Below, in pieces: positions 6,653-25,384 of a DNA stretch of 50,932 bases. The stretch's first letter is position 1. Every line of letters begins with the position of its first letter. Under the pieces are notes generated by a model. The model was not told where the DNA came from and ran no database searches. It worked only from the letters and a program-made list of their open reading frames with translations. The position numbers and the translations under genes were made by a program. This DNA is from Alphaproteobacteria bacterium (lineage in GTDB: Bacteria; Pseudomonadota; Alphaproteobacteria; CAAHEQ01; UBA3637), in NCBI GenBank assembly GCA_017394405.1, contig JAFPYW010000020.1, positions 1-50,932 of the forward strand. The letters are read 5' to 3'.

Positions 6653-7636
6653 TTAAGTAATTGCCGTAATGGCACGAATATTACCATCTCTGTTGATCTG
6701 AACAACGCGCAATTTTTCTTTCATTTCTTTGCGAGTTTTTTCCTGATCCAATTCCGGATTGGTGTGCATAATGCGGGAAATAAACGCTTGATACGCGGCC
6801 TCAGGACTTTCGGCATGGATCGTGGCAAAGCAGTTTTCGTGGCCTGAATTCATCAATTCCCAAATAGCTCCCGCATTGGATGTTGAAATTTCTCCACCGA
6901 TAATCGCATCCGGCGTAAAACGCACAACCAAATCCACCACTTGGCGATAATCAAATTTGTTATTGGCTTCAGTACGCGCCAACACCAAATGCACGCGGTT
7001 TGGTTGATGTACAATCAATTCACGCGTATCTTCCACCGTAATAATGCGTTTATGCTCATCCAATAACTTTAACATATTATTCAAGAAGGTTGTTTTACCA
7101 GTCGCCGTACCACCGCTGATCAAAATATGGTCGCCACGCTTTATGGATAAAACCAATCGATCATATGGATCATCCGGATCTTCCACATTTTTTAATTTAT
7201 TGATTTGATGCAAACGACCACCTTGAACCAATCCGAATTGATCCATGTGAATATCCACATCCGGGCGATACACACGAATATCCATCGCCACACCGCCTTC
7301 CAAATCGTTTTCATCATATTTCACGTTTTGGCCAACAATACCTGCAAAACGGTGTCCTCCCGGCAATTCTGTATAAAGAGCCGGCACACCCACTTCTTCC
7401 CCAAAGGGTTTGTCTTGGCTGTTGGCAATAATGTACATGATGTTCGTCAAATACTCGCGCGTTAATTTGGGATCTTCATAATAATGCCACGGATGCGCAT
7501 GGCGCCCCCTTAAACGCAACCAAATTCCCCCCGGATTATTGACGGCAACGTCTTCCACATTATCTTGGGAATACCAATAGGCCAATGGTTTCAAAGCCAT
7601 TTCTAAAATACGATGTGAATCTGGACGAGCAACCAT
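6653..7636 (-). CDS. virB11: type IV secretion ATPase VirB11
   Basis: Walker A ISGGTATGKTTFLN, RIITVEDTREL, FTPDAIIGGEIS and NSGHENCFATIHAES match the VirB11/T2SSE hexameric ATPase pattern. The ATG at 7636 has a GGAGGA RBS; the extension to 7705 would overlap the virB10 end. Confidence 0.85.
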   Translation of the reverse strand: MVARPDSHRILEMALKPLAYWYSQDNVEDVAVNNPGGIWLRLRGRHAHPWHYYEDPKLTREYLTNIMYIIANSQDKPFGEEVGVPALYTELPGGHRFAGIVGQNVKYDENDLEGGVAMDIRVYRPDVDIHMDQFGLVQGGRLHQINKLKNVEDPDDPYDRLVLSIKRGDHILISGGTATGKTTFLNNMLKLLDEHKRIITVEDTRELIVHQPNRVHLVLARTEANNKFDYRQVVDLVVRFTPDAIIGGEISTSNAGAIWELMNSGHENCFATIHAESPEAAYQAFISRIMHTNPELDQEKTRKEMKEKLRVVQINRDGNIRAITAIT

Positions 7637-7646
7637 TACATCCTCC

Positions 7647-10600
7647 TTAAAAATACGACTTTGACCCTGTTGGCGGCTGGGAAACGGGTTGCACAAGACG
7701 ATCATCTATATTCGGTTCTTCGGCCGGATAGATGGTGCCAACAGAACTCCCGCCTGCAACGTTAGGACTGCCGCCTGTGGGTTGTCCTTTATTTTCGTTT
7801 GAAGAATTTTCTTCATTTCCCTCTTGCGGCTCACGTTTTTTCATCGGATTATATTCGCTAGGGGGTGTCCCAGCTTTTGTGCTGGGCTTACCATTTTCTG
7901 CCTCTAACTTCGCCTGATCATCCGACACGGCACGCAACCACAAATCTTGACCAGCAAACACTGTAATCCGCGTTCCAGATGGCACATACACGATATTCGG
8001 CACTTCTTTTGCTTCGTCTATCATCTGGTTGAACATTTCTTCCATACGATCGGAAATCATTTGACGCACATCATGACCCACTGAATTTCCGCTTGCCCCA
8101 CTCTTTTCATTGAGAGAAGTCATTTCTAGAGCAAAGATTTCAACTGCTGTGGATAACCATGGTGCCGTATATTTTTTGAACATCTGTTCATCCAAATACG
8201 CTGCCACACCGCCACGTCCCATCGCGTCACCAGAAACGGCCTCAATAGCAAAGGCAGCACCATCAGGTCTGATTAAACGTTCCCAAGAAATGCTCAATTT
8301 GACGGCCTTGCCCGAATCGCCATCGCCACCACTTTCAGCCTTACCAATCAAATGGCTGCCCGCTGGGATCAAAATATTACGTCCTTCTTCTGCATAAATA
8401 TGACGTTCCACCACCGCAGTCACAGGAACATCTGCATACCGAGAATCTATTGCACGTGTCAATACGGCTGGAATTGCCTTGTCTTTTAACAACACATGTG
8501 TCATATCCACAGGCCATGTAGAAATAGACTTGCCCGCCCCAATACTGGACCAATCCTTGTCCTGATGTTTCTTTGCTTTTGCCAAAATTTCAGGGCCCGG
8601 AATAATACCCGGCGTAGAGCTCATCTTTTCACGCATTTGTTTGCGCCGATTAAACATCAACTCTGTCATTATTTGCCGTTGTTCAGGCGTGATTGTCATC
8701 GGTTTTGGCATGACCGGTGGTTCGCGTTTTACTTCTATCGGCCCATCAATCTTGTCACTTTCAAAGAAAAACGGCCGACCATCTTCGCCCATATAACCCA
8801 CGATATTACCATTAGAATCAACCAAAGATCCATTTTCAACCGTAAATGGTTTGCCCTTCAAAATAATCTTCCGACCAGAACCAATCATGTTAGCACTGGA
8901 CAATCCACACTTGCGTAAATCTAATCCAATACCGCGGAACTGACCATATTGAGATCCATCAGGATTATACACCTTACCATCTGGGGTCACCGTCAATAAG
9001 ATATCGTTATTATCGTCACGCAAAGCCCCATCTGCCATCAAGGCCGCCATCTTTTCACCACCAGGCAATTTGCGCAATTCGCAACCAATCAATCTGGCAA
9101 CAGGTTTGTTTGCCATATCATACAAAATCACGAAGTTATCGCCATCTGGTTTAATTCTGGTGCCATCCGGCAAGACCATTTCATTCTTTTTATAATCCCA
9201 CTGGAATAAATCTTCTCCCGTTTCCGGATCTTTCACCCAACCTTCTGCCGTCACGGCATACTTCAATGTGCCATCTTTATTAAAGCCTAAACTGGTCGAT
9301 TTGGGGGCCATCCAACCTTTTCTTTCCCCATTTTCGTCAACCCATATAGCCGTTTTGCCACCGACGATCACACCACATTTACGTCCATCCATACAAATCA
9401 CGTTACCCATGGCGTCAACACGACCTTCCATCTTCTTACTTGTACCAAACACAGGACCACGTTCACGCACCCAACCAATTGTATTTCCGTTCGGATCTAC
9501 AACGCGTGTATCTGTTTGCCCACAACCAATGGTTACACCATTCGGATCCACCACCGTAGAATCAGGCAGCGTACGGCCAACAAACACAGATGTCCGACTG
9601 AATTGTTCGCTGGTCACCGGTCCATACACAACTGTATGACCTAAAACCTTCCCTTGGGCATTTGTGGCATACAACGTCGGTTGAATACGGCCAACGATAT
9701 TTCCTTGACCATTGACCACCTCACCATTATACGTTGTTTGGCCGACAATCGAGCAAGAATCTGTCGTCACCAAAGCATCCGGAATCACCCGACCAATATT
9801 CTTTGTTTCCTCCAATTCCGATTTCACTTCGTGCGGGAAAATGGCCCCTGCAGAATCTACAAAGCCCAAATCTTCTCCAGCAGAAGACATCATTCTGGCA
9901 TCACCATCCATTGTTCCCATTATTGTATCGTCATGAGAAATAGCTGGATAAAATGGCACAACAACACCTTCCAAAGGCCGTTCTTTACCCAAAACAGTAG
10001 CATCATCCAATAAGTTATAAATAATCTTGTCTGAGGAATCAATAATATCGCCATGAACCGTTGTCCGCCCTAACACATTTCGGCCATAACCGATTGGCAA
10101 CCCCTGCGCCACCAAGTGCCCGTTATAAGGCATTGTGTTATACACAGCCCGCTCATCCACACCAACAGACGATCCATCCGCCAAAACGCGGCCTTTGAAT
10201 CCCCTGTCAGATCCAACAATCGTTCCATCAGCCGCAACAACACCCACTTTGCGTGCATAGTCATCAATGATTGCACCGGTTTTGATTTGTCCCCCGATCC
10301 ATAATGTTTCCGGTGTCAACGCCGAATAAAATGGTGTTTTAACACCCAACACCTTACCAGCAAAATCAACAACCTGACCTTTGGCATCTAATTGGCCGAC
10401 CACAGCGCCCACGCGGTCAATAATGGTCGCCGGTGGTGTCACAGATCCGGAAATAACTCCAGCATTTTTATACAATACACCCATACCGGATACATTTCCT
10501 TGAACACGCCCACCCAACCATAAAGCACCCGTCATCAACTCAGTGCCCGCCTGACTTAAATTGATTTGTGACATCAACCCCATCGGAACAACAGCTCCGG

Positions 10601-14105: not shown

Positions 14106-14114
14106 AGCACCCTA

Positions 14115-15815
14115 CTATTTAATTCTGACGACCGAGCACGAATATCCGCGTTTTCCCAATTTCCGGCAAAGCGTATCTGCCGTCTCAGCATCTTTCACAG
14201 TTCCCGCACGCAAACGGAACAAATCCATTGTTTCACCATTTGCCGATGTATCAACAGAATAGTACGGATCATATCCGGCCAACAAGTCCCCATTTGCACG
14301 ATATACTTGCTCCCACAATTTTTCCAACTCGGCAATTTCACCGGCTGTACCAAATTCTAGAGCAATATTTTCTTTTGCAGCAACCGGCAACACAACACCT
14401 TTGTCGGCTTGAATAGCATCAATTTCAGCGCGAGCCGCACTGGATTGTCTGACTGATGCAGGAATCGCCGCCATTGGTTGCCATGCAGCTGTACCGCCAC
14501 AACGATTAGCCCCTAATGTGTCATCACAATATGGGTTGATACCACCCGTTGCATACGGATTATATCCACCAGTTTCTGTCGCATAAGCCCCATTTCCAGC
14601 ACCTAATTGAGCCGGTGCATACGGATTATTACCATGCAACACAGAACCTCCTCTGTATGTCACTTCCGGATTCGGCATATCTGGCGCACGCACAGGTAAT
14701 TGAGTGTTATAAGCATAGGGTTGAGAATTAAACGCGCTGTAATCCGTATATTCCAAACCAGCGGCAGGATCACGACGCATCTTGATGCAAATAACTTTGC
14801 GCCCATTTCTCAAAACCAAATCACCAATGGCTTCTACTACAATCAATCGGCTGTTTGGACCACGCGTTCTAAAGCCCACCGGCACCTCTGAATCTTGTTG
14901 CAATAAACTGACCACTGGACGTTGTGTCATTGTCAATGCTTTCGGGCCCAAATCAATGTAGGTGAAAATGTTATCACGCCACACATTATCCGGCGCAATA
15001 TCAACATCATCCGGATTTGGCAAGAACATATCCAAGTCAAATTTCAATGCTTCTGGATCCATTGGAACCGTATTTTTCCATTCATTGGCTGTATTGATTT
15101 GCAACGCACTTGTTGTCGAACGTGCAGTTGTTGCACCCATCATATTCAAAGACGGCATAGAGGCCATTGTGGAAACCCCATCACCCTCGCGCAACTGGCC
15201 ACCATCAGCCACAGGCGTCCAACGTGGCCCCACCAAAACATCTACCACCGATTGAGTAATTTTGTCTGTGTTGAAGGTTTCACTGCGCAAATAGAAAACG
15301 TATCTATTTCCGGAACGACCAAACATCACCATGTTACTATCCACACCCACATAGGTTGGATCTGCATACAACAACATTGAGTTTGGCGCCACAATATCCC
15401 CACCGAAAGATTCCGGCGCACCAATATGAACTTTTTCAATCAATTCCCATGACGGCAAATTGATCAAAGTCATCATTCCTTCTCGAACACGCACAGGCAA
15501 CACAGTATCTGGCGTCCAGTTATATTTGGAATACCCTGGCTTTGTTTGTCCGGAACCCATGTGAGCCAATGGATTATTCCACGCTTTTTGTTGCATTCCC
15601 AATCCTTGTCCCATTGAACGCAACCAATCCATATCCACTTCATCATATTGGCCGGATGCGTTAGCAAGAGCGTCAGCTAATTGTGCCGCTTGTGGATCGG
15701 TAGGAACATTTGTTTGTGCAAAAAGAGGGGAAACAAAAACACCCAAAACACCCGTCAATACGGGTAAAACTCCCTTTAATAAAAACTTTTTACTCACCGG
15801 TTCCTCCTTTTTCAT
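14115..15815 (-). CDS. virB9: VirB9-like T4SS outer-membrane core protein with C-terminal SPOR domain (566 aa)
   Basis: Signal peptide ..LTGVLGVFVSPLFA. VirB9/CagX-type N-domain (YNWTPDTVLPVRVREGMMTLINLP..RYVFYLRSE) and C-domain (IFTYIDLGPKALTMTQRPVVSLLQQDSEVPVGFRTRGPNSRLIVVEAIGDLVLRNGRKVICIKM). This is followed by a ~130-aa Y/N/P/G-rich linker and the SPOR-like end. Confidence 0.8.
   Translation of the reverse strand: MKKEEPVSKKFLLKGVLPVLTGVLGVFVSPLFAQTNVPTDPQAAQLADALANASGQYDEVDMDWLRSMGQGLGMQQKAWNNPLAHMGSGQTKPGYSKYNWTPDTVLPVRVREGMMTLINLPSWELIEKVHIGAPESFGGDIVAPNSMLLYADPTYVGVDSNMVMFGRSGNRYVFYLRSETFNTDKITQSVVDVLVGPRWTPVADGGQLREGDGVSTMASMPSLNMMGATTARSTTSALQINTANEWKNTVPMDPEALKFDLDMFLPNPDDVDIAPDNVWRDNIFTYIDLGPKALTMTQRPVVSLLQQDSEVPVGFRTRGPNSRLIVVEAIGDLVLRNGRKVICIKMRRDPAAGLEYTDYSAFNSQPYAYNTQLPVRAPDMPNPEVTYRGGSVLHGNNPYAPAQLGAGNGAYATETGGYNPYATGGINPYCDDTLGANRCGGTAAWQPMAAIPASVRQSSAARAEIDAIQADKGVVLPVAAKENIALEFGTAGEIAELEKLWEQVYRANGDLLAGYDPYYSVDTSANGETMDLFRLRAGTVKDAETADTLCRKLGKRGYSCSVVRIK
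14118..14369 (-). other. SPOR-type peptidoglycan-binding domain at the VirB9 C-terminus (aa ~483-566)
   Basis: NIALEFGTAGEIAELEKLWEQVYRANGDLLAGYDPYYSVDTSANGETMDLFRLRAGTVKDAETADTLCRKLGKRGYSCSVVRIK follows the alphaproteobacterial SPOR pattern (..A...W..l....gdlL.g..p......G...yRLR.G......A..lC..L...G..C.vv). Confidence 0.65.
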
Positions 15816-15936
15816 AGACTCTACTTTATTCCAATGTATCTAAAAATAAAACGAAAGTCCAGTAAAAAGTGGCAATTTTTTCAGTTTTTTTAAAAAAAAA
15901 TATCTTGGAGAAAAAGTTGAAGACAAAAAACGACTT

Positions 15937-16650
15937 TTATGGTCTTATTTCTTCAGGTTCCGAAGGCTCCAAACCAAAACTTAAAACCTTAAATCCAAGT
16001 GGGTTTTGCAAGATTTGAGAACGGCTGCGCGGTTCTCCATCTGGACGGAATGCAACTTTAGCACGAGCAATCCACCAAGTTTCTTCCGGCACAGACGAAA
16101 CGCGGTTCATTTGACTAATTTTAATTTTGGCTTCATAGACATCCCCATCATTTGGACCCGTTGCAGTCTGAGTTTTATTCACGCGCAAAATTTTAACATC
16201 CCGTGTCATATTGTCTTCTTGGGCCATTTTTCCCAATCTTACCAATTCTTGTTTTTTGAATTCGTCATACACCGTATTAGAGCTCATTTGTTCCACGATA
16301 CCACCGGGCCCCCAACGTGTTTCTTGTTCTTGCCAGTTGGATCCGATACCATATCGCGCCAACAAATATTGACGTACATAAGACCCTTTTAATGTATCGG
16401 AATCTAATACTTCCTGGGCAGGACGCACCACATCAATAATTTGCTCATTTTTATCTTTTGTTGAAATATAAAACGGCTGAACACGCAACACAGGAGTCAC
16501 ATTAGCCAAGGCAATCAGCAAAACAATATCACAAATAATGGCCAAAACTACCATCACCACAAAAGCCCGAGACATCCATAAATAACGCTCCTCCTGCAAA
16601 ACTTCGCGGGAAGAAACAGAATGTTTCTGTGTGTTTTCAGATGGTGCCAT
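15937..16650 (-). CDS. virB8: VirB8 family T4SS protein (copy b, 237 aa)
   Basis: Bitopic layout: cytoplasmic N-terminus, TM (AFVVMVVLAIICDIVLLIALANV), then an NTF2-like VirB8 region (LRVQPFYI...YVRQYLLARYGIGSNWQEQETRWGPGGIVEQMSSNTVYDEF). GAGGAGG RBS. Confidence 0.8.
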   Translation of the reverse strand: MAPSENTQKHSVSSREVLQEERYLWMSRAFVVMVVLAIICDIVLLIALANVTPVLRVQPFYISTKDKNEQIIDVVRPAQEVLDSDTLKGSYVRQYLLARYGIGSNWQEQETRWGPGGIVEQMSSNTVYDEFKKQELVRLGKMAQEDNMTRDVKILRVNKTQTATGPNDGDVYEAKIKISQMNRVSSVPEETWWIARAKVAFRPDGEPRSRSQILQNPLGFKVLSFGLEPSEPEEIRP

Positions 16651-16664
16651 AGCCCCTCCTCAAC

Positions 16665-16841
16665 TTACGAAAACCACTCAGGCAATTCCGGTGCTTTTTT
16701 CAATTCCAAACAGGCACAAGGAGATTTTTTCAACTCCGAATATTCAGGACCAATGCCCACCGGCATTTTTTCATAAACCGAGTTACATGCGGCCAAAATC
16801 AAGCCACAAAGCCCTAAAAACAAACAAATATACGTTTTCAT
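16665..16841 (-). CDS. virB7: small lipoprotein in the VirB7 position (RvhB7-like)
   Basis: MKTYICLFLGLCGLILAAC has a lipobox, and the mature peptide is ~40 aa. It sits between two virB8 copies, as in rvh islands. Assignment is by size, lipobox and position only. I prefer the ATG at 16841 over the GTG at 16847. Confidence 0.55.
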   Translation of the reverse strand: MKTYICLFLGLCGLILAACNSVYEKMPVGIGPEYSELKKSPCACLELKKAPELPEWFS

Positions 16842-16911
16842 AGTCACCCTTTCTGTTATCTCATTTTCCCTTACTTTATCACATTAAATCAAAATATCAA
16901 CAAAAAAATGA

Positions 16912-17523
16912 TTATTTTGTCACATTTGATTCATCCACACTGGTTATAATAAAGCCATAAGGATTGGAAAGAACGCTACCCATCAAACGTCTGGCAGGCA
17001 TATAACCAAAGTGCAGCACAACGCTTCGTGTCGATTTGCGCCATGTTCCACGTCCCGTGGCTTCATATAAGTCAAAAATAACGGCATAATAATTTTCTTT
17101 ACGTGTTGCACTAATAATATCAACAACCTTTTGTTGGGAATTTTCATCCGCCGAAGTGTAAATATCTTCCGAAGGAGCAAATTCATCATATACTTTTGGG
17201 GCAGACAAAAAGGCCACAATGCCATTTGGCCCCCAACGACGGGTCATTTCTACAGAATCCGAAATAAAAGAATAACGCATTGTCACATACAAACGAACCA
17301 GTGCATCATCTACTGTTTGACGTTGTAACGCGCTCACTGGAATAACCGTAATTAAATCGCGAAACTCACCAGAATCTAAACGAAAAACTTGTGCAAGCAC
17401 ATTGACCTGTAAAACCGCCTGAAACAAAGTAACAACAATAAAAAATGTCACAATCCAAACGGCCCAACATACCACCATCAGTAATCGTGTCAAATGCCAT
17501 GCTGTCGTTTTGTGTTCAGTCAT
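16912..17523 (-). CDS. virB8: VirB8 family T4SS protein (copy a, 203 aa)
   Basis: TM (LLMVVCWAVWIVTFFIVVTLF), then VRLYVTMRYSFISDSVEMTRRWGPNGIVAFLSAPKVYDEF, which parallels copy b (R-W-G-P-x-G-I-V..Y-D-E-F). Confidence 0.8.
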   Translation of the reverse strand: MTEHKTTAWHLTRLLMVVCWAVWIVTFFIVVTLFQAVLQVNVLAQVFRLDSGEFRDLITVIPVSALQRQTVDDALVRLYVTMRYSFISDSVEMTRRWGPNGIVAFLSAPKVYDEFAPSEDIYTSADENSQQKVVDIISATRKENYYAVIFDLYEATGRGTWRKSTRSVVLHFGYMPARRLMGSVLSNPYGFIITSVDESNVTK

Positions 17524-17539
17524 GCCGTTCCTTTTTTAT

Positions 17540-18691
17540 TTAGCAAGAACCGAGATCAATCTCCCGATTCACGACATTAGCATCAAAATCGCTGTATGCT
17601 TGATCAATCATTTTGTTCAACATCGCTTTGTTGGCGCGTTTTTCCGCCATTCTTCTATCCACTTCAGACGCATTTGTTTCTGTCATATAAACCTCACCAT
17701 CCGCGTCTTTTTCCAAAGCCGTTACAATAATTTGTTGGCGTGCCTGTGGCGTCATTTGATCTGCTACAGCTATATCCGGAAATACATCGGGAAATTGTTC
17801 CTGAATTTCTCCAAATACCGCCTGTTTATTTTGAGAACGAGCCGCCCTGCGCTCAACCAAATCAGGATTAGCTGCATCTTGAGCATCTAATTGGCTGATA
17901 TAGGCCTTCGCCTCGTCCAAATATTGTTGTTTCAATGTCTTTAATTTTTTATGCACAGCCGTTACTTTCGTGCCGCGAATAAAATCTAACTCTGGCTCTT
18001 GAACATCAAATTCTGCCAATTTAGAAACGAACATTTGTTGCATTTTCATAAATTGTTCATCCGCCTGAGTTTGTCCGATTTGGGCGTGTGTCAATCCTTT
18101 TTCAGCCATATTCATTTCTTCTAACAAGTTGTAGTCGCTGTTACGAGCCAAGGCCTCTGGTGCCTCATCCGAGGAACGATCCACAACATCACCACCCCAC
18201 GTTCTGGCATTTTTGAAAACATCTTTCATCAAATCATTTTCAATATCACGCTTTTCGGCAAGTTTTGCGTTTTGCTCGGAAATGGAGAGCGGCACAATGC
18301 TGTCTGGATGTGCTTTTTTATCACTTTTCAGATCTGCGGTCCGCGTCTTATAGGCCTCACGTACCTTTTTTAACATTTCACCTGCATTCTTAAAACGTCC
18401 GGAAAAGCGTTTTTCGCCACATTGGTTCAATGCCTTCATATACTTTTCCATCTTTCCTGTTGTTTTACGCAATACACGAACGGTTTCCGCTGTCTTTTCC
18501 AATTCTGGCATTTGGTTCATTAAATTATGAACAGCCAACGCCTTTTCCAAGGCCTCGTTCCGCGTTGCCAACAATTGTCGGCGCGCTTTGACTTCAATTT
18601 TTATAACAGGCGGAGCCCCGTGGCGCACAGCACCCACAGGCGAACTCACCAAAACAAATCCACAAACACATGCTAATAAAATATGCTTCAT
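17540..18691 (-). CDS. exported coiled-coil protein, unknown family (383 aa; T4SS-linked block member 6)
   Basis: Signal peptide MKHILLACVCGFVLVSSPVGA. The rest is K/E/A/Q-rich helical sequence ending in ..DLGSC. There is a 16-nt gap to virB8a. Confidence 0.75.
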   Translation of the reverse strand: MKHILLACVCGFVLVSSPVGAVRHGAPPVIKIEVKARRQLLATRNEALEKALAVHNLMNQMPELEKTAETVRVLRKTTGKMEKYMKALNQCGEKRFSGRFKNAGEMLKKVREAYKTRTADLKSDKKAHPDSIVPLSISEQNAKLAEKRDIENDLMKDVFKNARTWGGDVVDRSSDEAPEALARNSDYNLLEEMNMAEKGLTHAQIGQTQADEQFMKMQQMFVSKLAEFDVQEPELDFIRGTKVTAVHKKLKTLKQQYLDEAKAYISQLDAQDAANPDLVERRAARSQNKQAVFGEIQEQFPDVFPDIAVADQMTPQARQQIIVTALEKDADGEVYMTETNASEVDRRMAEKRANKAMLNKMIDQAYSDFDANVVNREIDLGSC

Positions 18692-18694
18692 GTC

Positions 18695-19939
18695 CTAATC
18701 TCCCACTGTTGAATTTGTATCCAAAGGAACCTCTGATGTCAATGGCCCATCATCATCAGAATCTGTCACTGGGTTTTCCGAAATACGATCAAAGTTCAAT
18801 TCCAACGCCTCTGAACGTAATTTCAACCGAGCAGCAACAACATTCATCTTTAATTCCGTTAAAGCATCATATAATACCCGACGAGATGCCGCCGTATTCA
18901 ATGCTTGCGGTTTTGTACCATATTCTGCGTCAATTAATCCGTCAGCTTCGGACAATTCTTTTAAGGATTGTTTCAACTGCATAGCCGTTGCCAAAGCCCG
19001 AATAGAACGTTGCTGTGCCTTATAACGCATCGTGTAGTTTTCAACCGAGTTACTAGTCAAAGAACGTTGATCATTCACCAATGTTTCGGCACGATATTCC
19101 ATCAACTCACGCGGAGAAGCAGAAGAAGCATCTTTCAGACCTTCATATTCCTTGGAATCAAATTTCATCAATCCAAACTTTTGTGATTTAACGGCCACAT
19201 CCCCCATAATTTGGACGATCTTGTTTCTATTTGGCGGGCCAACCCATTGGTCTGTCACGTGGCCTTCTTCACCGGCAAAACTGGCCAAGATCTTGTTGGC
19301 TTCAGCCAAGAACATATCCGTTGCAATACGCACGGCAGACGTCATCATAGACATCAAGTTCGGAGCTGTCGGCAACAGCGGCGCATAAGTCATTTCGTAT
19401 GTTGCAACACATACTGCTGCATTAGGATCCGTTTCCACCAAGAAAGTATGTGTCGTTCCCGTCACGGGATCAGGTACCACCACATCCTCAAAACAAGCAG
19501 CAAATGATGCCTGATAACACTCTGGATAACACAACGCCGCCGCCAATGTACAAGAGGCCATACACGAAGCCGTCAGAGCCGAAAATCCCGCATAGTTCGG
19601 GCAATTAACCTCTTTCCCTTTAACTTGTACACTCGTTGTTCCCCATAAACCATCCCAAGCGCTTGCTAATGTTTCGCCTAAAACAGATGTATTGATGAAA
19701 AATCCCGCAACGGTGGCCACAGCACCAGCCGCCATATTGATTGCAGCCGCTTGATCATTTTTCTTTGATTTTTGAGTTCCGGATCCTTTACTACTGGCAT
19801 CAGCACTTGTTGATTTAGCCGCATTTGAGGCCGCTGTTGAAGCATTATCTACACCCCGCGAAACACTGATGTCGGCATTGGCATTAAACGACGCCAACAG
19901 AACAGATCCCGCACAAATCAAAACACTTAACGTTCTCAT
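18695..19939 (-). CDS. exported Cys-rich protein, unknown family (414 aa; block member 5)
   Basis: AAGGAGG RBS and signal peptide MRTLSVLICAGSVLLASFNANA. It has an S/A/K-rich spacer, a second hydrophobic stretch AAAINMAAGAVATVAGFFINTSVLG, and a Cys cluster NCPNYAGFSALTASCMASCTLAAALCYPECYQASFAAC. The C-terminus is helical with an acidic tail. Confidence 0.75.
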   Translation of the reverse strand: MRTLSVLICAGSVLLASFNANADISVSRGVDNASTAASNAAKSTSADASSKGSGTQKSKKNDQAAAINMAAGAVATVAGFFINTSVLGETLASAWDGLWGTTSVQVKGKEVNCPNYAGFSALTASCMASCTLAAALCYPECYQASFAACFEDVVVPDPVTGTTHTFLVETDPNAAVCVATYEMTYAPLLPTAPNLMSMMTSAVRIATDMFLAEANKILASFAGEEGHVTDQWVGPPNRNKIVQIMGDVAVKSQKFGLMKFDSKEYEGLKDASSASPRELMEYRAETLVNDQRSLTSNSVENYTMRYKAQQRSIRALATAMQLKQSLKELSEADGLIDAEYGTKPQALNTAASRRVLYDALTELKMNVVAARLKLRSEALELNFDRISENPVTDSDDDGPLTSEVPLDTNSTVGD

Positions 19940-19948
19940 AATGCCTCC

Positions 19949-20791
19949 TTATTTCTTTTCATTGTTGTTGGCGGCGGCATAATTGCTGCTACCTCCAGTC
20001 CAACTTGTTGCATCCGGTTTGCTTTCGTGTTGCAAATCCGATGGTGGCGTTTCATCCATTAAAATTACCGGCTGGTATGTCAAAAACTTGGCCGCATCCA
20101 ATTCCATCAATTCAATTTGCAAGGCAATATCCACGATCAACGCTTTATTGACGGCTTTCCATGTTTGGTCAATACCAGAAATCACACCGATTGTTCCGTT
20201 AGCATTGATGTCCGCCGTAACAGCATCCATATCGGTTGCCAAATTCATTTGTGTTTCATAGGCCAACCGCACATAAGCATCAGAAATCGTTTTCAAATAA
20301 TCCTCACGATTTTTCTTGACCTTATCAACTTCATCTTGTGTCAATGTGCTTTTATTGGGTAAAAAGAACAAATCTAAAATTGCTTGTTTTGTATCGCCTT
20401 TACCACCATCAATTTTATTGTTCAATGGCGCATAGGGTGTATATTTTCCCGATAAAATCTGATCTTTCTCAATTAAATGATCATAGGCCGTAATATCCAA
20501 ACCGCTGGCTGGATCACCAGTACCTTCATTGACTTGGTAAGAAGTATCACCCTCTGCCAACGCACCAACTTCTTGTTGTTTCACATTGACTTCAGCAATT
20601 TGCACAGGCTCTTCACCCAAAGAAAGCAACGACAACACGGCACCGGTTGCATTTCGAATAGGGTCGGTGGTTGTTGGAACGACCGGCTTCAAATCCTGTA
20701 TTGGTGGAGCAGGACAAATTGCTTTAGCAACGCCGGCACACATCAATGTGGATAAGACCACAACACCTAAAATCTTACTTTTTGTCATCAT
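19949..20791 (-). CDS. exported protein, unknown family (~280 aa; block member 4)
   Basis: The GGAGG-spaced ATG at 20791 gives the signal peptide MMTKSKILGVVVLSTLMCAGVAKA. The C-terminal module is DKVKKNREDYLKTISDAYVRLAYETQ...ALIVDIALQIELMELDAAKFL. Confidence 0.75.
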   Translation of the reverse strand: MMTKSKILGVVVLSTLMCAGVAKAICPAPPIQDLKPVVPTTTDPIRNATGAVLSLLSLGEEPVQIAEVNVKQQEVGALAEGDTSYQVNEGTGDPASGLDITAYDHLIEKDQILSGKYTPYAPLNNKIDGGKGDTKQAILDLFFLPNKSTLTQDEVDKVKKNREDYLKTISDAYVRLAYETQMNLATDMDAVTADINANGTIGVISGIDQTWKAVNKALIVDIALQIELMELDAAKFLTYQPVILMDETPPSDLQHESKPDATSWTGGSSNYAAANNNEKK

Positions 20792-21614
20792 CAGACCCTC
20801 CAGTAATTTCTTCACTCAATTCAACTTCCTCTGTTCCTTCTGTTGCCAAATTGCGATAGGATTGAGCCGTTAAATCTTTTGATTGCAACAAAATAATTGT
20901 CGGCACCCGTTGTGAAGCATATACAGATAAATCACCCATACCTGCAATAAACTCACGCAATGTCGTCATACCATTTAACGAAGACACCAATTCATTTAAT
21001 TCTTTGTATTCCGTATCCATTTGTCCAAAGAAAGCATCTGCTTCGGCGATGGCACTACTTGTTGCTGTTGCTAACTCTTCATTTTGACGTGCTTTAGCAC
21101 ATTCAATCGGATCACATTGATCGGCTGTTCCATCAGCACATTTACAATCTTTGTTGGCTTCGGCACCATCTTGAGCAAAAGCAATTTTAGCAATCTCAGT
21201 TTGAACACTTTCCAAAGAAACCTTTTCTTTATCTTCAATCAATTTGATGGCGCTGTCAGGCACATCCATAGCGGCTTTTTCGGCCTCTTCTGCCATGGCC
21301 GCCCCTTCTTCTTCGGTGGTCAAATCGCATCCCGTATTTCCGGTGGCTGAACGACCACAATGGCCACGATCTTGTTGCATACCGATATTCTTTTCCAATT
21401 GATCAGAACCGGCACTGGCATCAATTTCCAATTTTTTCAATTTTTCACCGGCCGCAGACACTGCATATTCCAACAAGGCCCCGATATAATCGGTCAGCAA
21501 ACCAATGTTAAAAAAACCGTGTTTAATCGGCCACGCGCTCGAAAGAGCATGACTCGGCAACGCGGTTCCCAACATGACTAGAAAAACAAAAACAAGTTTC
21601 AACTGGCGCATCAT
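20775..21614 (-). CDS. exported protein, unknown family (279 aa; block member 3)
   Basis: AGGAGGAC RBS and signal peptide MMRQLKLVFVFLVMLGTALPSHA. Cys pairs (GHCGRSATGNTGC, KDCKCADGTADQCDPIEC) and an acidic tail ..EEITGGSDDDKK. Confidence 0.75.
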   Translation of the reverse strand: MMRQLKLVFVFLVMLGTALPSHALSSAWPIKHGFFNIGLLTDYIGALLEYAVSAAGEKLKKLEIDASAGSDQLEKNIGMQQDRGHCGRSATGNTGCDLTTEEEGAAMAEEAEKAAMDVPDSAIKLIEDKEKVSLESVQTEIAKIAFAQDGAEANKDCKCADGTADQCDPIECAKARQNEELATATSSAIAEADAFFGQMDTEYKELNELVSSLNGMTTLREFIAGMGDLSVYASQRVPTIILLQSKDLTAQSYRNLATEGTEEVELSEEITGGSDDDKK

Positions 21615-21620
21615 GTCCTC

Positions 21621-22547
21621 CTATTTCACTTCCATCAAGGCCGCAGCCGCATCATTGGCCACCTGTTGCCCCTGTACCATATTTGCTGTATTCAAACGTT
21701 GAGCCAACCCCAAATCTAAGCCCGTCAGCACTTTAATGTTAGCGCTTTCGCTTTTTCCTGTACCGACATAACTTTTCATTGTATTGGCAAAATTCTTTTG
21801 ATCTGCCGCAACCGTTCTCATTAAATAAGAACGCGCAATTCCGGCTGTTGCTGTTTTTTGCAAATGCACGACCTTACGATTTTTTTGAACCTTTAACAAT
21901 TCCGCTTCACTCAAATCGGACGGATTGACGCCACTGGCCCCAGCCGTTGAGGTCGGAATTTCAATTTCTTTGCCATCTGCCCCTTTAATTTTGGTTGTTC
22001 CACCATCTGATGTGGTTCCAAAGCCATCCTGAATTGTGGGCATAGCACCAACAATTTCGTCCGCCTTCTTCAAAACCGTGCCAGAAGGATCAGCCAACGC
22101 CGGCAAACCACTATTGTTTAATGAGGCCACATGAACTTCTGTTTCATCCAAGAACATACCTTCGGTACCCTCTTCAGCCAATTCTTCCAATCCACCGATT
22201 TTACGCACAGCGGCTTGATAATGGTCTTTTAATCCTGTCCATTCCACTTCACGTTCGCCCGCTTTTGCCAAATTCAACGCATCAACAACAATGGATGCGG
22301 CATCCGTGTTCCAAGAACCGATACCTGGCATTTTAACATTTGTCATCCACCAACAAAACAACGCTGGACAACCATGCAAGTTTGTGAACATCGTTATACC
22401 AGCTGATACGATGCTGACACCAGCCATCGCAATTGTATAGGCCTTCTGCGCACTGGCCATATTGGCCTTTGCCGGTTGAGGAGCAAACAAACATGTCGTT
22501 CCCAATAATGCAGCTCCACACAAAGCACTGATTACTTTATTACTCAT
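21621..22547 (-). CDS. exported protein, unknown family (308 aa; block member 2)
   Basis: ATGA start/stop overlap with the upstream gene. Signal peptide ..LCGAALLGTTCLFAPQPAKA, second hydrophobic stretch AYTIAMAGVSIVSAGITMF, then HGCPALFCWW. The C-terminal module is LKVQKNRKVVHLQKTATAGIARSYL...LDLGLAQRLNTANMVQGQQVANDAAAALMEV. Confidence 0.75.
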   Translation of the reverse strand: MSNKVISALCGAALLGTTCLFAPQPAKANMASAQKAYTIAMAGVSIVSAGITMFTNLHGCPALFCWWMTNVKMPGIGSWNTDAASIVVDALNLAKAGEREVEWTGLKDHYQAAVRKIGGLEELAEEGTEGMFLDETEVHVASLNNSGLPALADPSGTVLKKADEIVGAMPTIQDGFGTTSDGGTTKIKGADGKEIEIPTSTAGASGVNPSDLSEAELLKVQKNRKVVHLQKTATAGIARSYLMRTVAADQKNFANTMKSYVGTGKSESANIKVLTGLDLGLAQRLNTANMVQGQQVANDAAAALMEVK

Positions 22548-25384
22548 TTGTTATCTCCTTCCCCATTATTGTCACCATCCGTTGATCCAGCGCTTGGTGG
22601 AGTCACATCTTGAGCATTTAACAATGACGCACCCTGCACACCCATCTGAACTGCGGACAACGCGGCACCACGCAAAGTTTCTAATAACACATAACGTCCA
22701 ACGTCTTGCACCAAACCGAACGAGCCCGTTTCAGTCGGCGGATTTTGGGCATTAGCAAAATCAACCAAGGCCTTTGCCCGATCCATAAATGCATTGGAAA
22801 TCGCGTTCATTCCTTCGGAAATCAACACGCCAGCATTAGCATATTGAGCCAACAATTTTTGACGACGAGATTGAATTTCTTGGATGTACCCAGCTTGCTC
22901 TGGTGTCAATTCATCGCCACCATCATCATCGGTATCAGAATCCTCAGTATTTTCATCATCATTTGTATTGTTATAACCCAAGCCGCTGGTCGTCATACCG
23001 GCCTCAAACGTGGCATACAAAGGATCTTCTTTCTTTTTTTCCTCTGTTTCCGTTTTCTTCACGGTTGTGCTCAACAAATCCAAATCAATTTGAGCGGCTT
23101 GCAACAATTGTTGAGTCAAGGCAGCAGCGCCGGCAGCCGTTTTACCCAACTGAGCCATATCAATATCAGCCAATTCGGTGGCATCTTCTGCTGCCACAGC
23201 CTCACCGATATCACCGGCCTGGACAATAACTTCTTTGTTTTCATTAACCTTGTTATCGCTTTTTTCGTTGGCTAAAATTTCTAAAGCCGTCTGAACAACA
23301 TCCCACACCTTTAATGTTTGTGGAATCTGTGGCACGGAATCGCCTTGTTGCGTAGCCAAATCTTTATTAGCATCTTCCAACGCCCCATTGGCCGCACTCA
23401 TCGCAGCACCATCATTTTTGCACTGCTCTTCATTATTATTCAAGTAATTGGCCTGATTCAACAAATCGTTCATTTTTTCGGATTGATCAATCTTGCCCAT
23501 TAAATCGTCATTTCCTTTGGCACCCGCACGCATGGCATCGTAATCATAGGAGCCATCCGGTTTGAATACCTCGGCAACGCCAGCATCACGTAACGCCCCC
23601 TTCATTTGAGCATCCGCAACACCAGCACCAAATTTCAAATCACGAACTAACGATTCATTGGAGGTTGTGTCTGGATGGAACTCCGGTTGCACCTTGTTTG
23701 CCGCGTCAGCAATGGCACTACGAAATTCATCAGATGTTGTTTTACCAGATAACAAGGCACTACCCAACGCACTATCTTTACCAATGCCGGCCGCAGCCAA
23801 ATGTTGCGCTGTCCGATCCGCGACAGCACCTTGAAGCGCCGTAGCATCTGTCACACGTTGTGACGCATTTTTCAAAGCATCTGTTTGTTGTTTTAATAAT
23901 TTAGAATTAGCCTCTTTTAATTCCGCTTCGCGTTCCTTGATTTGCTCCTTCAATGCCGATTTTTCGGCACCGGATGCACCTTTTAATTGCTCGCGCAATC
24001 CCGTCAATTCTTCATTCAATGCATTGACATGATCTTTTGTCGCGCTGATTAAAGCCCCATCTGCCTTTGAAATCTGAGCACTCTTATCCAAATTGATAAC
24101 CGCATCAGCCACCTTGTTATCAGCATCAGAGTTTGATCCCAATTTTGTGATGTTGCCATTTTTATCTATATTGATACCAAAGACTTTTCCCAATTTGTCA
24201 TTATCTTCACCGGACAAAGTAAACACAGATCCGCCATCCTTTGTCGGAGTTCGATCCAAATTAAACAGCGCATCCAAACCCAGGGCTTTTCCCCGTTCGC
24301 TGGAAATAACACCAGTATTGGGATCCGTAGTAGAAATCTTATTCTTAAAACTATCAAGGTTTTGCTTCGCCCACGACCTCACATTATCCCAAAAACCCGG
24401 ACCCTTTTCCTTTGGCGCCTCGGTCTTTGGCGCCTCGGTCTTTGGCGCTTCGATCTTTCCATCATATACCTTCTTAACATCCTCCGGCATATTATAGTAA
24501 CCCAATTCATTATTGACCTGGTGAGCCGCCATTTCACGCTCTTCTGCACTTAAATTTGGATCAAGTGCCTTACGAATATTTTCCTGCAATGTCTCATTAC
24601 TTTTTGCATTATAGATTCTTTGAACGTCATCCGGTAAATTGTAGTATCCGATCTCGCTATTCAACCGAGCAGCCGCGGCCTCCCTTTCAGACATTGGCAA
24701 ACTTGTATTGCGTACAATATCTATATCTTTGGCATTTGGTGTTGCCGCTGGGGTTGTACCAGGTGCTGGTGATTCCGCACCCACAGCATTCCTTGCGGCA
24801 GTAAGTGCTCGCCCTGCATTTAATCTCCTAACAAGGGAGTCATTACCTGCATTACCATAAGTTCCAGTTATATTGCCGTCTTTATCCCTTACCGTTACCT
24901 GAGTAGGCACACCATCCTCATTAATGATAAAAGTATCTGTCCCCCCGGCAATGTTTGGATGTACCTCTGTACGCTCACCGGCAGATGTGACGGCCGATCC
25001 GGATCCTGCCCTCTGTGCATAAACTCCAGTATATGCGCCCATATTAACTTGGTTTGTCGCGGGATTGTAATCACCAGAAACCTGTCTACCATTTACTGTT
25101 GCTGTATATCTTCCATTTTTGGAATCAAATTTTATGTCCTTTGCTCCTGGATGTAAGGTTCGAACCGTTGATGCCGCCACATCAAGCGAATACATCGGCT
25201 GAGTGGTCGCGGTCTTACCAGCGCCTGTGGATGCTGACGATTTCGGCGAATTTTTGAGATATTGCGCATACGCAGGATTTCTCATAGCCCCTATGGCAAT
25301 TGCTTCTTCTCGGGTAATCGCCCACACATTAGACGTGCTCACCAAAATGGTTCCCAGCAACAAAACCTTCACAAAATTGCGCAT
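22544..25384 (-). CDS. large exported coiled-coil/repeat protein, unknown family (946 aa; block member 1)
   Basis: GGAGG RBS 5 nt upstream and signal peptide MRNFVKVLLLGTILVSTSNVWA. It has an internal ~32-aa duplication (LNSEIGYYNLPDDVQRIYNAK / VNNELGYYNMPEDVKKVYDGK), EAPKT x3, long K/E/A/Q-rich helical regions and an acidic D/E/T/N segment. The C-terminal module is IQEIQSRRQKLLAQYANAGVLISEGMNAISNAF... Confidence 0.8.
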   Translation of the reverse strand: MRNFVKVLLLGTILVSTSNVWAITREEAIAIGAMRNPAYAQYLKNSPKSSASTGAGKTATTQPMYSLDVAASTVRTLHPGAKDIKFDSKNGRYTATVNGRQVSGDYNPATNQVNMGAYTGVYAQRAGSGSAVTSAGERTEVHPNIAGGTDTFIINEDGVPTQVTVRDKDGNITGTYGNAGNDSLVRRLNAGRALTAARNAVGAESPAPGTTPAATPNAKDIDIVRNTSLPMSEREAAAARLNSEIGYYNLPDDVQRIYNAKSNETLQENIRKALDPNLSAEEREMAAHQVNNELGYYNMPEDVKKVYDGKIEAPKTEAPKTEAPKEKGPGFWDNVRSWAKQNLDSFKNKISTTDPNTGVISSERGKALGLDALFNLDRTPTKDGGSVFTLSGEDNDKLGKVFGINIDKNGNITKLGSNSDADNKVADAVINLDKSAQISKADGALISATKDHVNALNEELTGLREQLKGASGAEKSALKEQIKEREAELKEANSKLLKQQTDALKNASQRVTDATALQGAVADRTAQHLAAAGIGKDSALGSALLSGKTTSDEFRSAIADAANKVQPEFHPDTTSNESLVRDLKFGAGVADAQMKGALRDAGVAEVFKPDGSYDYDAMRAGAKGNDDLMGKIDQSEKMNDLLNQANYLNNNEEQCKNDGAAMSAANGALEDANKDLATQQGDSVPQIPQTLKVWDVVQTALEILANEKSDNKVNENKEVIVQAGDIGEAVAAEDATELADIDMAQLGKTAAGAAALTQQLLQAAQIDLDLLSTTVKKTETEEKKKEDPLYATFEAGMTTSGLGYNNTNDDENTEDSDTDDDGGDELTPEQAGYIQEIQSRRQKLLAQYANAGVLISEGMNAISNAFMDRAKALVDFANAQNPPTETGSFGLVQDVGRYVLLETLRGAALSAVQMGVQGASLLNAQDVTPPSAGSTDGDNNGEGDNK
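24411..24455 (-). repeat. 15-bp tandem repeat x3 (encodes EAPKT EAPKT EAPKE)
   Basis: The plus strand reads tttggcgcctcggtc / tttggcgcctcggtc / tttggcgcttcgatc. Two copies are identical and the third has 2 mismatches. It is in-frame inside the 946-aa gene. Confidence 0.9.

Follow-up and report, generated by a model that had tools for sequence, protein, structure and literature searches.

The question raised by this locus is whether VirB9, a subunit of the outer-membrane core of type IV secretion systems (T4SS), has been joined to a SPOR-type domain and, if it has, what that domain would do there. The means by which T4SS cross the cell wall, and are held and positioned in it, are poorly understood beyond the VirB1 transglycosylase and Legionella DotK, and a SPOR-type module on VirB9, kept in more than 1,000 sequences, would offer a simple and genetically separable handle on the problem. 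Agrobacterium VirB9 and pKM101 TraO are approximately 290 aa in length. The window analysed here, a stretch of 50,932 nucleotides from an uncultured gut alphaproteobacterium, encodes a VirB9 protein of 566 aa, which a reading of the sequence without database searches (hereafter the sequence-only reading) had described as VirB9 fused through a long linker to a peptidoglycan-binding SPOR domain. Features of the gene and its neighbours are given in Table 1.

Table 1. Coordinates of the VirB9 gene, its domains and the surrounding operon in the window.
Feature	Position	Strand	Basis or remarks
VirB9 ORF (566 aa)	14115-15815	-	ORF check of window; secreted VirB9/CagX protein
VirB9 signal peptide (aa 1-34, ending ...SPLFA, followed by QTN)	15714..15815	-	hydrophobic aa 10-28, then AxA-type site
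VirB9 N-terminal block, conserved (aa 41-202)	15210..15695	-	CagX match from aa 96; column conservation 0.7-0.97
Variable A/T/G/S/M-rich insert between VirB9 blocks (aa 203-245)	15081..15209	-	conservation 0.41-0.61
VirB9 C-terminal block, conserved (aa 246-360)	14736..15080	-	CagX match to aa 345; conservation 0.85-0.99
Hypervariable linker (aa 361-481)	14373..14735	-	conservation 0.21-0.44
C-terminal SPOR-type domain (aa 482-566, 85 aa)	14118..14372	-	Pfam, phmmer, AF2, Foldseek, hhalign
Giant VirB10, 2152 aa	7647..14105	-	N-terminal TM segment, 11 beta-flower repeats, C-terminal TrbI domain
VirB11-type ATPase	6653..7705	-	Pfam T2SSE; NCBIfam TIGR02788 E 8.5e-44, under family cut-off
dUTPase-like gene, after VirB11	6084-6641	-	
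Secreted SH3b protein, after VirB11	likely 5621-6100	-	
VirB8	15937..16650	-	Pfam VirB8, E 7.6e-14
Small conserved lipoprotein, VirB7 position	16665..16847	-	lipobox LAAC; conserved YSELKKSPCACL...APELPEWFS
Second, divergent VirB8 paralogue	16912..17523	-	Pfam VirB8, E 1.6e-6
Six consecutive ORFs (383, 414, 288, 279, 308, 946 aa)	17540..25384	-	all with signal peptides; upstream, same orientation

Membership of the VirB9 superfamily is indicated by Pfam CagX (PF03524), which matches aa 96-345, scores 56.4 bits where its gathering cut-off is 34.2, and covers profile positions 4-196 of 198. When domain boundaries were set by alignment of 65 family sequences, two conserved blocks emerged, one on either side of a variable insert; the N- and C-terminal VirB9 blocks proposed previously are thus upheld, as is the extra insert that had been placed at aa ~200-260, and both of the peptide strings then quoted are present in the ORF. 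The insert is 43 aa long here and 36-54 aa across the family, with pLDDT below 50. The family N-terminus is variable and ends A-x-A-Q, the signal peptide marks an exported periplasmic protein, and the gene has virB8 and virB10 as its neighbours on either side, while virB11 and the gene of a small lipoprotein are close by. The body HMM of the family also matches plasmid VirB9 proteins, while NCBIfam TIGR02781, which describes the P-type VirB9 equivalog, scores 38.1 bits, far under its cut-off of 217.7. A profile search of the PDB with the full-length family matched none of the solved VirB9 proteins by sequence, and the full-length AF2 model (pLDDT 47) has only fragmentary strands at aa 100-340 of the VirB9 body, where a VirB9 should have two beta-sandwich domains, the N-terminal one for the I-layer and the C-terminal one for the O-layer. 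The protein therefore resembles VirB9, TrbG and CagX in its CagX match, signal peptide, paired conserved blocks, VirB8 and VirB10 flanks and upstream lipoprotein, but differs from a usual VirB9 in being about twice as long and in carrying the insert, a linker of 121 aa and a C-terminal SPOR-type domain. Judged by sequence, it is a divergent member of the superfamily rather than a P-type conjugative VirB9 equivalog, and the gene most probably encodes VirB9, an outer-membrane-core subunit, for a divergent type IV secretion locus on the chromosome whose gene order is like that of the Rickettsia rvh system.

A fusion of this kind might arise artificially, if the loss of a stop codon, or an error of assembly, had merged virB9 with an independent SPOR gene. 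The search for homologues elsewhere returned 1,328 protein matches to the fused protein, and among the best 120 of these, query coverage is 94-100% (excepting two at 59-60%) and every one ends in the conserved C-terminal domain. The fusion is a single ORF in these homologues, which come from hundreds of independent assemblies and many sources, and it is not peculiar to one assembly. The operon order VirB8'-lipoprotein-VirB8-VirB9-VirB10-VirB11 is conserved in four related loci, at 52-73% identity and in differing chromosomal neighbourhoods (L003, L005, L006), and the same structure occurs on contigs of 150-240 kb; an independent gut-metagenome run holds 98% of sampled words of the window sequence. 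A scan of a genome collection with the single VirB9 protein found one true relative, a rumen metagenome-assembled genome. We found nothing in favour of an artefact: short database proteins that comprise the domain only do exist (P0121, P0123, P0127), but they look like fragments from contig ends, and the similar short proteins P0126 and P0130 retain the C-terminal part of CagX. We therefore reject a lost-stop or mis-assembly origin of the 3' extension, the probability of which is negligible given its recurrence across independent assemblies. Literature searches, within the library consulted, found no paper that pairs VirB9 with a SPOR domain, and none that combines T4SS, a peptidoglycan-binding domain and the outer membrane core complex; a 2025 review of T4SS nomenclature never mentions SPOR.

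That the last ~84 aa represent a SPOR domain, as the sequence-only reading maintained, is corroborated by several methods. Pfam SPOR (PF05036), like CagX, passes its gathering cut-off, here 21 bits, matching aa 514-564 with 23.2 bits when the whole protein is scanned and 27.5 bits for the domain by itself; the match is marginal, spanning profile positions 29-76 only, or two thirds of the model, yet it recurs in all 25 family members tested (best E 1.2e-7). The domain alone, when compared with 1.84 billion sequences using phmmer, reaches TPR-SPOR, Ank-SPOR and multi-SPOR proteins with E of 1e-10 to 1e-7, and hhalign of the domain family against canonical SPOR paralogues gives 99.4% (E 6e-22). 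Sequence searches of the PDB with the single domain and with the domain profile found no SPOR structure, and hence homology is established here through Pfam, phmmer bridging, hhalign and a search by fold. The isolated domain is modelled with confidence by AF2 (pLDDT 85.4, and 85-97 over the domain across models) as beta-alpha-beta-beta-alpha-beta, with strands at 10-17, 43-48, 58-66 and 87-90 and helices at 20-33 and 69-81 in model numbering. The best three Foldseek matches to this model are the SPOR domains of CwlC (1x60) and RlpA (6i09, 6i05), with target-normalised TM of 0.74-0.78 and rmsd of 2.3-3.4 A, and subsequent matches fall below TM 0.5. It shares with the SPOR domains of FtsN, DamX, DedD, RlpA and CwlC both this RNP-like fold and the basic strand 'RLR.G', and with SPOR paralogues of alphaproteobacterial type the cysteine pair in 'LC.KL...G..C.VV', here C550 and C560, a conserved pair that probably forms a periplasmic disulfide. 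Unlike the former, it sits on a secretion-channel subunit and not on a division protein or cell-wall enzyme. Column identity is 0.64-0.80, with surface motifs PYYSVD and LE..W that are invariant and specific to the family. The C-terminal 85 aa are accordingly a genuine SPOR-fold homologue by sequence, and are predicted by modelling to fold as one.

Between the VirB9 body and this domain lies a linker of 121 aa (family range 80-164 aa, median 125) that is predicted to be disordered, with low pLDDT except for a helix at 453-470 in the AF2 model; this corresponds to a semi-conserved helix at aa ~451-470, ahead of the SPOR-type domain. The linker had been described as ~130 aa, rich in Y/N/P/G and built of NPY repeats. 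Its length and the presence of NPY motifs stand, there being three, at aa 397, 419 and 427, but alanine (18%), glycine (12%) and proline (10%) exceed asparagine (8%) and tyrosine (7%). The idea of a repeat array was rejected, since the motifs are short and a search for a DNA-level tandem repeat in the linker found none; the NPY motifs are moreover limited to closer relatives. The linker also contains a cysteine pair, C429/C439.

Comparable tails are not confined to this clade. Divergent SPOR-like tails end the VirB9 proteins of complete conjugative T4SS on megaplasmids of Erythrobacter and Sphingosinicella, with hhalign support of 97.5%, and support is weaker in Microvirga (81.7%). The plasmids concerned include NZ_CP031358 of Erythrobacter aureus YH-07 and p1 of Sphingosinicella BN140058. 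Pfam alone does not call the Erythrobacter and Sphingosinicella tails SPOR (16.3 bits or nothing), and their assignment rests on hhalign and custom HMMs. The megaplasmid systems have a VirB10 of normal size and lack the six secreted ORFs that accompany the operon in the window. The module hence accompanies VirB9 in more than one T4SS lineage.

What the domain recognises is a separate matter from its fold. The only highly conserved side chain of SPOR domains that contacts glycan is a glutamine on strand beta-1 (RlpA Q270, FtsN Q251, DamX Q351), which in the RlpA complex hydrogen-bonds the lactyl group of MurNAc (a free carboxylate) and the N-acetyl group of GlcNAc. In the window family this position is an invariant glutamate, E487. 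Among the 150 representatives listed from the search with the domain, glutamate occupies it in 13 of the 15 domains carried by proteins that also match the VirB9 body and in 30 further domains, mostly fragments with the same family motifs; one VirB9 protein among them, the divergent P0159, keeps glutamine, which is the commonest residue at this position in SPOR domains of other architectures (119 instances among the listed representatives). The VirB9 tails of Sphingomonadales megaplasmids have aspartate. At the position of F274, the phenylalanine that stacks on the glycan in SPOR domains, the window family has a polar or small, non-aromatic residue, and strand beta-2 has gained an invariant Tyr/Phe pair that canonical SPOR domains do not share. 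A basic patch is present in 'FRLRAG', where R534 and R536 are the equivalents of RlpA R309 and R311 (FtsN R285); R536 is invariant, while R534 is Arg or His, being His in approximately half of the divergent members. The domain is thus a SPOR homologue by sequence whose binding of denuded glycan is only putative, and the proposal that it tethers the core directly to peptidoglycan through denuded glycan is not supported as stated, the canonical glutamine being an invariant glutamate.

These residues bear on the conventional explanation, in which the tail would bind the denuded glycan left by division amidases and so recruit new VirB9 cores to the septum, and thence to the new poles. All characterised SPOR domains do bind denuded glycans and target the septum (PMC6895207, bioRxiv 2022.07.01.498525), main-chain atoms of strand beta-1 account for most contacts between SPOR domains and glycan, the window domain retains the basic patch, and P0159 still has its glutamine; furthermore, the Dot/Icm T4SS comes to lie at the poles through assembly at mid-cell together with peptidoglycan binding by DotK (PMC10266036). 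The native glutamate, however, equals FtsN Q251E, a published mutation that lowers both denuded-glycan binding and septal localisation of the SPOR domain; its carboxylate should repel the free lactyl carboxylate bound by glutamine in the RlpA complex; and the phenylalanine that stacks on sugar is lost. The acidic or non-glutamine state is fixed both in the gut clade (E) and in the megaplasmid clade (D), which points to selection for a non-canonical ligand. We consider the canonical function unlikely for these reasons.

If the ligand has changed, the fold might also have left the cell wall altogether and been repurposed as a protein-protein module, contacting for example the repeats of the giant VirB10, the VirB7-like lipoprotein or a secreted protein of the operon, or else plugging or regulating the outer-membrane complex. 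The alteration of key glycan residues would suit such a role, as would a degree of conservation across the domain, invariant surface motifs included, that is above that expected of a generic anchor, and the semi-conserved helix ahead of it. But the megaplasmid tails occur without a giant VirB10 or the secreted ORFs, so the partner is unlikely to be one that only the gut-clade operon supplies; the beta-sheet's exposed side retains its arginines; and, of the characterised SPOR domains in the papers considered here, none is described as acting via a partner other than peptidoglycan. Repurposing of this kind is, in our estimation, rather improbable.

Our preferred reading, on which our confidence is evenly balanced, is that the SPOR-type tail is a tethered module for anchoring or positioning in the cell wall, with an altered ligand. 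With VirB9 at some 14 or more copies per core complex, the tails would form a ring of dangling SPOR-type domains able to reach the peptidoglycan layer just beneath the outer membrane, and could anchor or position a very large channel, that of the 2152-aa VirB10, in the sacculus. As the model of the VirB9 body is poor, how the tether is presumed to sit with respect to the core is taken from published VirB9 structures. The binding cleft appears remodelled, in that glutamine is replaced by invariant glutamate, the phenylalanine position is polar or small, one arginine is partly kept and an aromatic pair is new on beta-2, and so the ligand is probably not classic denuded glycan with its free lactyl carboxylate but more likely another glycan state of the cell wall. 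A bolder version of this proposal, which we regard as doubtful, is that SPOR domains attached to VirB9 constitute a distinct subclass with an acidic or non-glutamine key residue, retuned to another state of peptidoglycan (peptide-bearing or N-deacetylated), and that a ring of ~14 domains could fasten the core to the sacculus at any point, or at one that is marked chemically. The natural replacement of glutamine by glutamate or aspartate offers a ready means of testing the ligand specificity of SPOR: should the domain prove still to bind the cell wall, the recognition range of SPOR is wider, and should it not, a cell-wall-binding fold has been recruited to a different task. Experiments are feasible because cultured Erythrobacter and Sphingosinicella have plasmids that encode related tails.

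On this bolder version, the machine served by the gut-clade module would be chromosomal and unusual, having a beta-flower VirB10 of 2,100-2,350 aa and a set of unassigned secreted proteins. In the window, VirB10 begins 9 nt past the VirB9 stop codon, and its size is 2164-2354 aa in L003, L005 and L006. The lipoprotein at the VirB7 position, 58-69 aa across related loci, has no Pfam or NCBIfam match, and its position, size and lipobox suggest the role of VirB7. The six upstream secreted ORFs likewise have no match in Pfam or NCBIfam; their homologues stand at the same position in L003, L005 and L006, with 25-45% identity. Beyond VirB11, the dUTPase-like and SH3b genes are present in L003 and L006 and absent in L005. 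The sequence-only reading had combined the SH3b protein with the tail in a cell-wall-anchoring theme, and while SH3b does follow the operon in the window and in two of these loci, its absence from L005 makes the link only a loose one. No second virB9 was seen in the window, VirB4, VirB6 and VirD4 were found neither in the 51-kb window nor in the flanks (+/-10 kb) on related contigs, and Pfam and NCBIfam detected no operon-encoded amidase or transglycosylase that might be a local source of SPOR ligand. The finding flags an uncharacterised and widespread secretion locus in Alphaproteobacteria of the gut and rumen.

Three known systems may be compared with it. The Cag T4SS of Helicobacter pylori belongs to the 'expanded' systems, its VirB9 (CagX) being oversized and its VirB10 (CagY) repeat-rich and ~1,900 aa long, and the window locus resembles it in having both an oversized VirB9 and a very large, repeat-rich VirB10. 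No SPOR domain is described for CagX, however, the VirB10 repeats in the window are of the beta-flower type, and the sequences are not close. The relationship of CagX to VirB9 is stated in PMC13417560. 'CagX' is also merely the name of the VirB9 family in Pfam.

By gene order, the basis on which the two were compared, the locus resembles the rvh (Rickettsiales vir homologue) system of Rickettsia (PMC2653234), where islet C reads virB8-virB7-virB8-virB9-virB10-virB11-virD4 with VirB8 duplicated, and VirB1, VirB2 and VirB3/4/6 lie on other islets. The window shares the order VirB8-lipoprotein-VirB8-VirB9-VirB10-VirB11 and the VirB8 duplication, and, like the rvh 'archipelago', its locus is without other T4SS components; it differs in having a dUTPase-like gene after VirB11 in place of VirD4, and in its giant beta-flower VirB10 and six secreted proteins upstream. 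In the part of the rvh description considered here, a SPOR tail on RvhB9 is not mentioned. This order also qualifies an earlier remark that the window has no VirB1-like lytic transglycosylase. The remark is true, in that no SLT/VirB1 Pfam match was found in the window ORFs scanned (nearly all real ORFs of at least 120 aa), but with the gene order of rvh islet C, and VirB1 elsewhere in rvh, its absence says little, and we rejected it as meaningful.

A functional counterpart to the tail is DotK of the Legionella Dot/Icm system, a peptidoglycan-binding lipoprotein of the T4BSS outer-membrane cap that holds the machine at the poles, with binding that depends on the chemistry of the glycan, specifically on GlcNAc acetylation (PMC10266036). 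It is a lipoprotein in its own right, has an OmpA-like fold and recognises the stem peptide, whereas the module in the window has a SPOR fold and, within a VirB-type system, forms part of VirB9, to which a long linker attaches it; the likeness is one of function, not homology. DotK provides a precedent for a peptidoglycan-binding core subunit that fixes the position of a T4SS.

The window encodes an exported VirB9, VirB9-SPOR, which ends beyond a hypervariable linker of ~120 residues in a well-folded SPOR-type domain, hereafter the tail. Its reading frame contains both peptide strings picked out in the sequence-only reading, and its parts, bounded from an alignment of 65 homologous sequences (Table), include the insert, NPY-containing linker and C-terminal domain described there. 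Across the full protein, Pfam returns CagX (VirB9) at aa 96-345 with 56.4 bits against a gathering cut-off of 34.2, and SPOR at aa 514-564 with 23.2 bits against 21, the latter covering profile positions 29-76 only. The NCBIfam VirB9 equivalog scores 38 bits, far under its cut-off of 217.7, and hence the protein is a divergent VirB9. Its linker, rich in Ala, Gly, Pro, Asn and Tyr, holds three NPY motifs and is probably flexible, being modelled with low confidence; no DNA-level repeat was found within it. A cysteine pair (NPYC...RCG) lies within aa 429-470 of the linker in the closer clade, and a near-invariant 'IP..V..S..A..GI' helix (aa ~451-470, pLDDT ~72) directly precedes the SPOR-type domain in otherwise hypervariable sequence; these could represent a docking motif.

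Table. Location of VirB9-SPOR, its parts (from the homologue alignment), neighbouring genes and megaplasmid relatives
Feature	Location	Strand	Details
VirB9-SPOR ORF	14115-15815	minus	566 aa
Signal peptide	about aa 1-34	minus
First conserved block	aa 41-202	minus
Variable insert	aa 203-245	minus	36-54 aa across family
Second conserved block	aa 246-360	minus
Hypervariable linker	aa 361-481 (14373-14735)	minus	80-164 aa across family
Conserved C-terminal domain (tail)	aa 482-566	minus
Secretion locus	5621-25384	minus
Giant VirB10	7647-14105	minus	2152 aa; N-terminal TM segment; TrbI at aa 1872-2057; low-complexity tail
Conserved lipoprotein	16665-16847	minus	58-69 aa; lipobox AAC; invariant YSELKKSPCACL...AP.LP.W; between two VirB8 genes
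Six consecutive ORFs	17540-25384	minus	383, 414, 288, 279, 308, 946 aa; all with signal peptides
Peptidase_M15/VanY-type D-Ala-D-Ala peptidase	779-1459	minus
880-aa ORF	35052-37694	plus	LptF/LptG permease domain aa 6-355; LptD_N and LptD domains aa 398-878
dnaA	47226-48614	plus
Erythrobacter aureus YH-07 VirB9	L007 11905-13203 (plasmid NZ_CP031358)
Sphingosinicella BN140058 p1 VirB9	L008 8899-10191

Four independent lines make the homology of the tail to SPOR domains solid. Scanned in isolation, all 25 family tails match Pfam SPOR (25/25, best E-value 1.2e-7), the window tail with 27.5 bits. A phmmer search of 1.84 billion representatives with the 92-aa tail alone returns first VirB9-length proteins carrying the domain at their extreme C-terminus, and then, at E 1e-10 to 1e-7, canonical SPOR proteins (TPR with two SPOR, ankyrin with SPOR, triple SPOR) that score 82-93 bits in Pfam. 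Profile-profile comparison with 44 canonical domains gives 99.4 % probability (E 6e-22, 81 columns). AlphaFold2 models the tail as beta-alpha-beta-beta-alpha-beta (pLDDT 85 alone, 90-97 in the full-length run), for which the top three Foldseek matches in the PDB are the SPOR domains of CwlC and of RlpA with and without denuded glycan (TM-scores 0.74-0.78 target-normalised, 0.65-0.66 query-normalised; rmsd 2.3-3.4 Å); lower matches are generic ferredoxin-like folds with TM <0.5. The SPOR profile and fold proposed from sequence were thus both recovered. PDB sequence searches with the tail returned no match, which fits the low identity that SPOR domains share with each other (PMC6895207). A conserved Cys pair in the tail is common to free alphaproteobacterial-type SPOR paralogues.

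An assembly artefact joining VirB9 to SPOR is excluded by the wide occurrence of the fusion in homologues. Against 5.8 billion clustered proteins the query gave 1,328 matches; the best 120 of these range from 509 to 613 aa. Query coverage is 94-100 % in nearly all of them (59-60 % in two), and 120/120 end in the same conserved domain. Many homologues carry precomputed CagX and SPOR assignments, and the few annotated ones are titled 'TrbG/VirB9 family P-type conjugative transfer protein [Alphaproteobacteria bacterium]' by NCBI. Since, in addition, 98 % of the gene's sampled words are present in an independent gut-metagenome run and the genome nearest by VirB9-SPOR is a rumen MAG, a stop codon lost in this assembly only, which the sequence-only reading had named as the alternative, does not explain the fusion.

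That reading also had the tail tethering the core to peptidoglycan by binding denuded glycan; here the homology holds, and the function cannot simply be carried over with it. Glycan lies on the exposed sheet of SPOR domains, where the only highly conserved side chain (RlpA Q270 = FtsN Q251 = DamX Q351) in RlpA forms hydrogen bonds to the lactyl carboxylate of MurNAc and to the N-acetyl group of GlcNAc; the rest of the site consists of basic residues clustered in a patch (R302/R309/R311) and of F274, a Phe that stacks (Alcorlo et al., PMC6895207). In pairwise and profile alignments, E487 of VirB9-SPOR takes the place of this Gln ('LEFGT' vs 'LQVGS' and 'IQLGS'). Among the 150 representatives listed in the domain search and aligned to the family HMM, Glu occupies the position in 13 of the 15 domains on proteins matching the VirB9 body, and in 30 more domains, most of them fragments that share the family motifs; Gln is retained in one divergent VirB9 (P0159) and, with 119 instances, is the most frequent residue where SPOR domains occur in other architectures. 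With the substitution Q251E, the isolated SPOR domain of FtsN is reported to bind denuded glycan less well and to localise less to the septum (bioRxiv 10.1101/2024.05.13.594014), and because the native Glu is this very substitution, denuded-glycan binding is not simply transferable. Instead of an aromatic residue, the F274-equivalent is Asp, Asn, Gly, His or Ala; Arg or His stands at the R309 position, and the R311-equivalent is invariant. Canonical denuded-glycan binding, leading to septal and then polar placement, is consistent with the retained basic residues and seems unlikely given E487. It is similarly improbable that the fold was repurposed for protein-protein contact, a reading that could accommodate both the altered glycan face and a family-specific invariant aromatic pair on strand beta-2 (P-[YF]-[YF]-S-[VI]-D), set against the basic positions still kept.

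No full-length match was found among PLSDB plasmids, where the closest VirB9 proteins match only aa 54-348 (36-38 % identity). Two plasmid VirB9 proteins, on megaplasmids of E. aureus YH-07 and Sphingosinicella BN140058 (430-432 aa), end in a ~90-aa segment, '..VDLGSG..RLRVGPF..VCKAM..KSCAVI', that aligns in hhalign with canonical SPOR paralogues (97.5 %, E 7.5e-12) and with the tail of the gut clade to which the window protein belongs (96.8 %), and scores 16.3 bits in Pfam SPOR, below cut-off. Asp stands at the canonical Gln position in both. In nearly every case, VirB9 proteins with such a tail have lost this Gln. Both loci are complete conjugative-type T4SS (relaxase, VirB4, VirB8-11, VirD4) with a VirB10 of ordinary size, and the Erythrobacter plasmid has an annotated VirB2. 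A Microvirga VirB9 of 550 aa has a weaker tail match (hhalign 81.7 %); none was found on VirB9 of Azospirillum, Paracaedimonas or Roseibium. Because the megaplasmid proteins also carry a divergent SPOR-like tail, the combination is older than the gut clade and more widely spread, and these cultured Sphingomonadales make the fusion tractable to experiment.

The minus-strand operon runs from the six signal-peptide ORFs through a second VirB8, a 60-aa lipoprotein in the VirB7 position, VirB8, VirB9-SPOR, VirB10 (starting 9 nt beyond the VirB9 stop codon), VirB11 and a dUTPase-like gene to a secreted SH3b protein. Three relatives (L003, L005, L006) share the core at 52-73 % identity in different neighbourhoods, L005 without the SH3b gene. 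Neither the lipoprotein nor the six ORFs matched a family (for the ORFs, in Pfam and NCBIfam); the latter are fast-evolving (25-45 % identity between loci), keep their place upstream of the VirB8 genes in every related locus, and are candidates for new T4SS components, surface structures or substrates. The giant VirB10 holds ~1,800 aa with 11 Pfam Bflower_2 (5-fold beta-flower) repeats, and its size is kept (2164-2354 aa) in the three relatives. Housekeeping genes, among them dnaA, lepA, recR, folD, lptFG/lptD and infC, fill the remainder of the window, and the locus is therefore chromosomal; dnaA, ~22 kb beyond its upstream end, places it close to the presumed replication origin. The VanY-type peptidase gene lies ~4 kb beyond the SH3b gene. 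Elsewhere, the 880-aa ORF resembles an inner-membrane permease joined with an outer-membrane LPS translocon, which may reflect a genuine fusion, a frameshift or a stop codon that was missed.

That envelope-spanning machines can carry peptidoglycan-binding modules is already known, and the VirB9-SPOR architecture was already present, unremarked, in sequence databases. No paper linking VirB9 with a SPOR domain was found in the literature searched, and a 2025 T4SS review (PMC12857230) does not mention SPOR. The main value of the system lies in its natural Gln-to-acidic switch, tractable plasmid relatives and unusual giant-VirB10 locus.

In size this VirB10 recalls H. pylori CagY, although the repeats differ. 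In the Rickettsia rvh system (PMC2653234), islet C has the same order, VirB8-lipoprotein-VirB8-VirB9-VirB10-VirB11, with RvhB7/VirB7 where the window's lipoprotein lies and virD4 in the place of the dUTPase-like gene, and other components sit on separate islets. No VirB1/SLT, VirB4, VirB6, VirB2 or VirD4 was recognisable in the 51-kb window, nor within +/-10 kb in three related contigs; the absence of VirB1 reported from sequence is thus correct, and since the rvh components are split between islets, it is no evidence that the tail replaces VirB1. In the O-layer, at least 14 copies of VirB9 make up the outer ring (PMC12857230), and the core complex would therefore bear a crown of tethered SPOR-type domains, with the thin layer of peptidoglycan under the outer membrane within their reach. 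With about even confidence, we favour the reading that these domains bind a glycan ligand unlike the classic denuded strand and so fasten or position the core complex in the sacculus. The nearest functional precedent for such anchoring is Legionella DotK, a peptidoglycan-binding lipoprotein of the outer-membrane cap that keeps Dot/Icm at the poles and whose binding depends on GlcNAc acetylation (PMC10266036).
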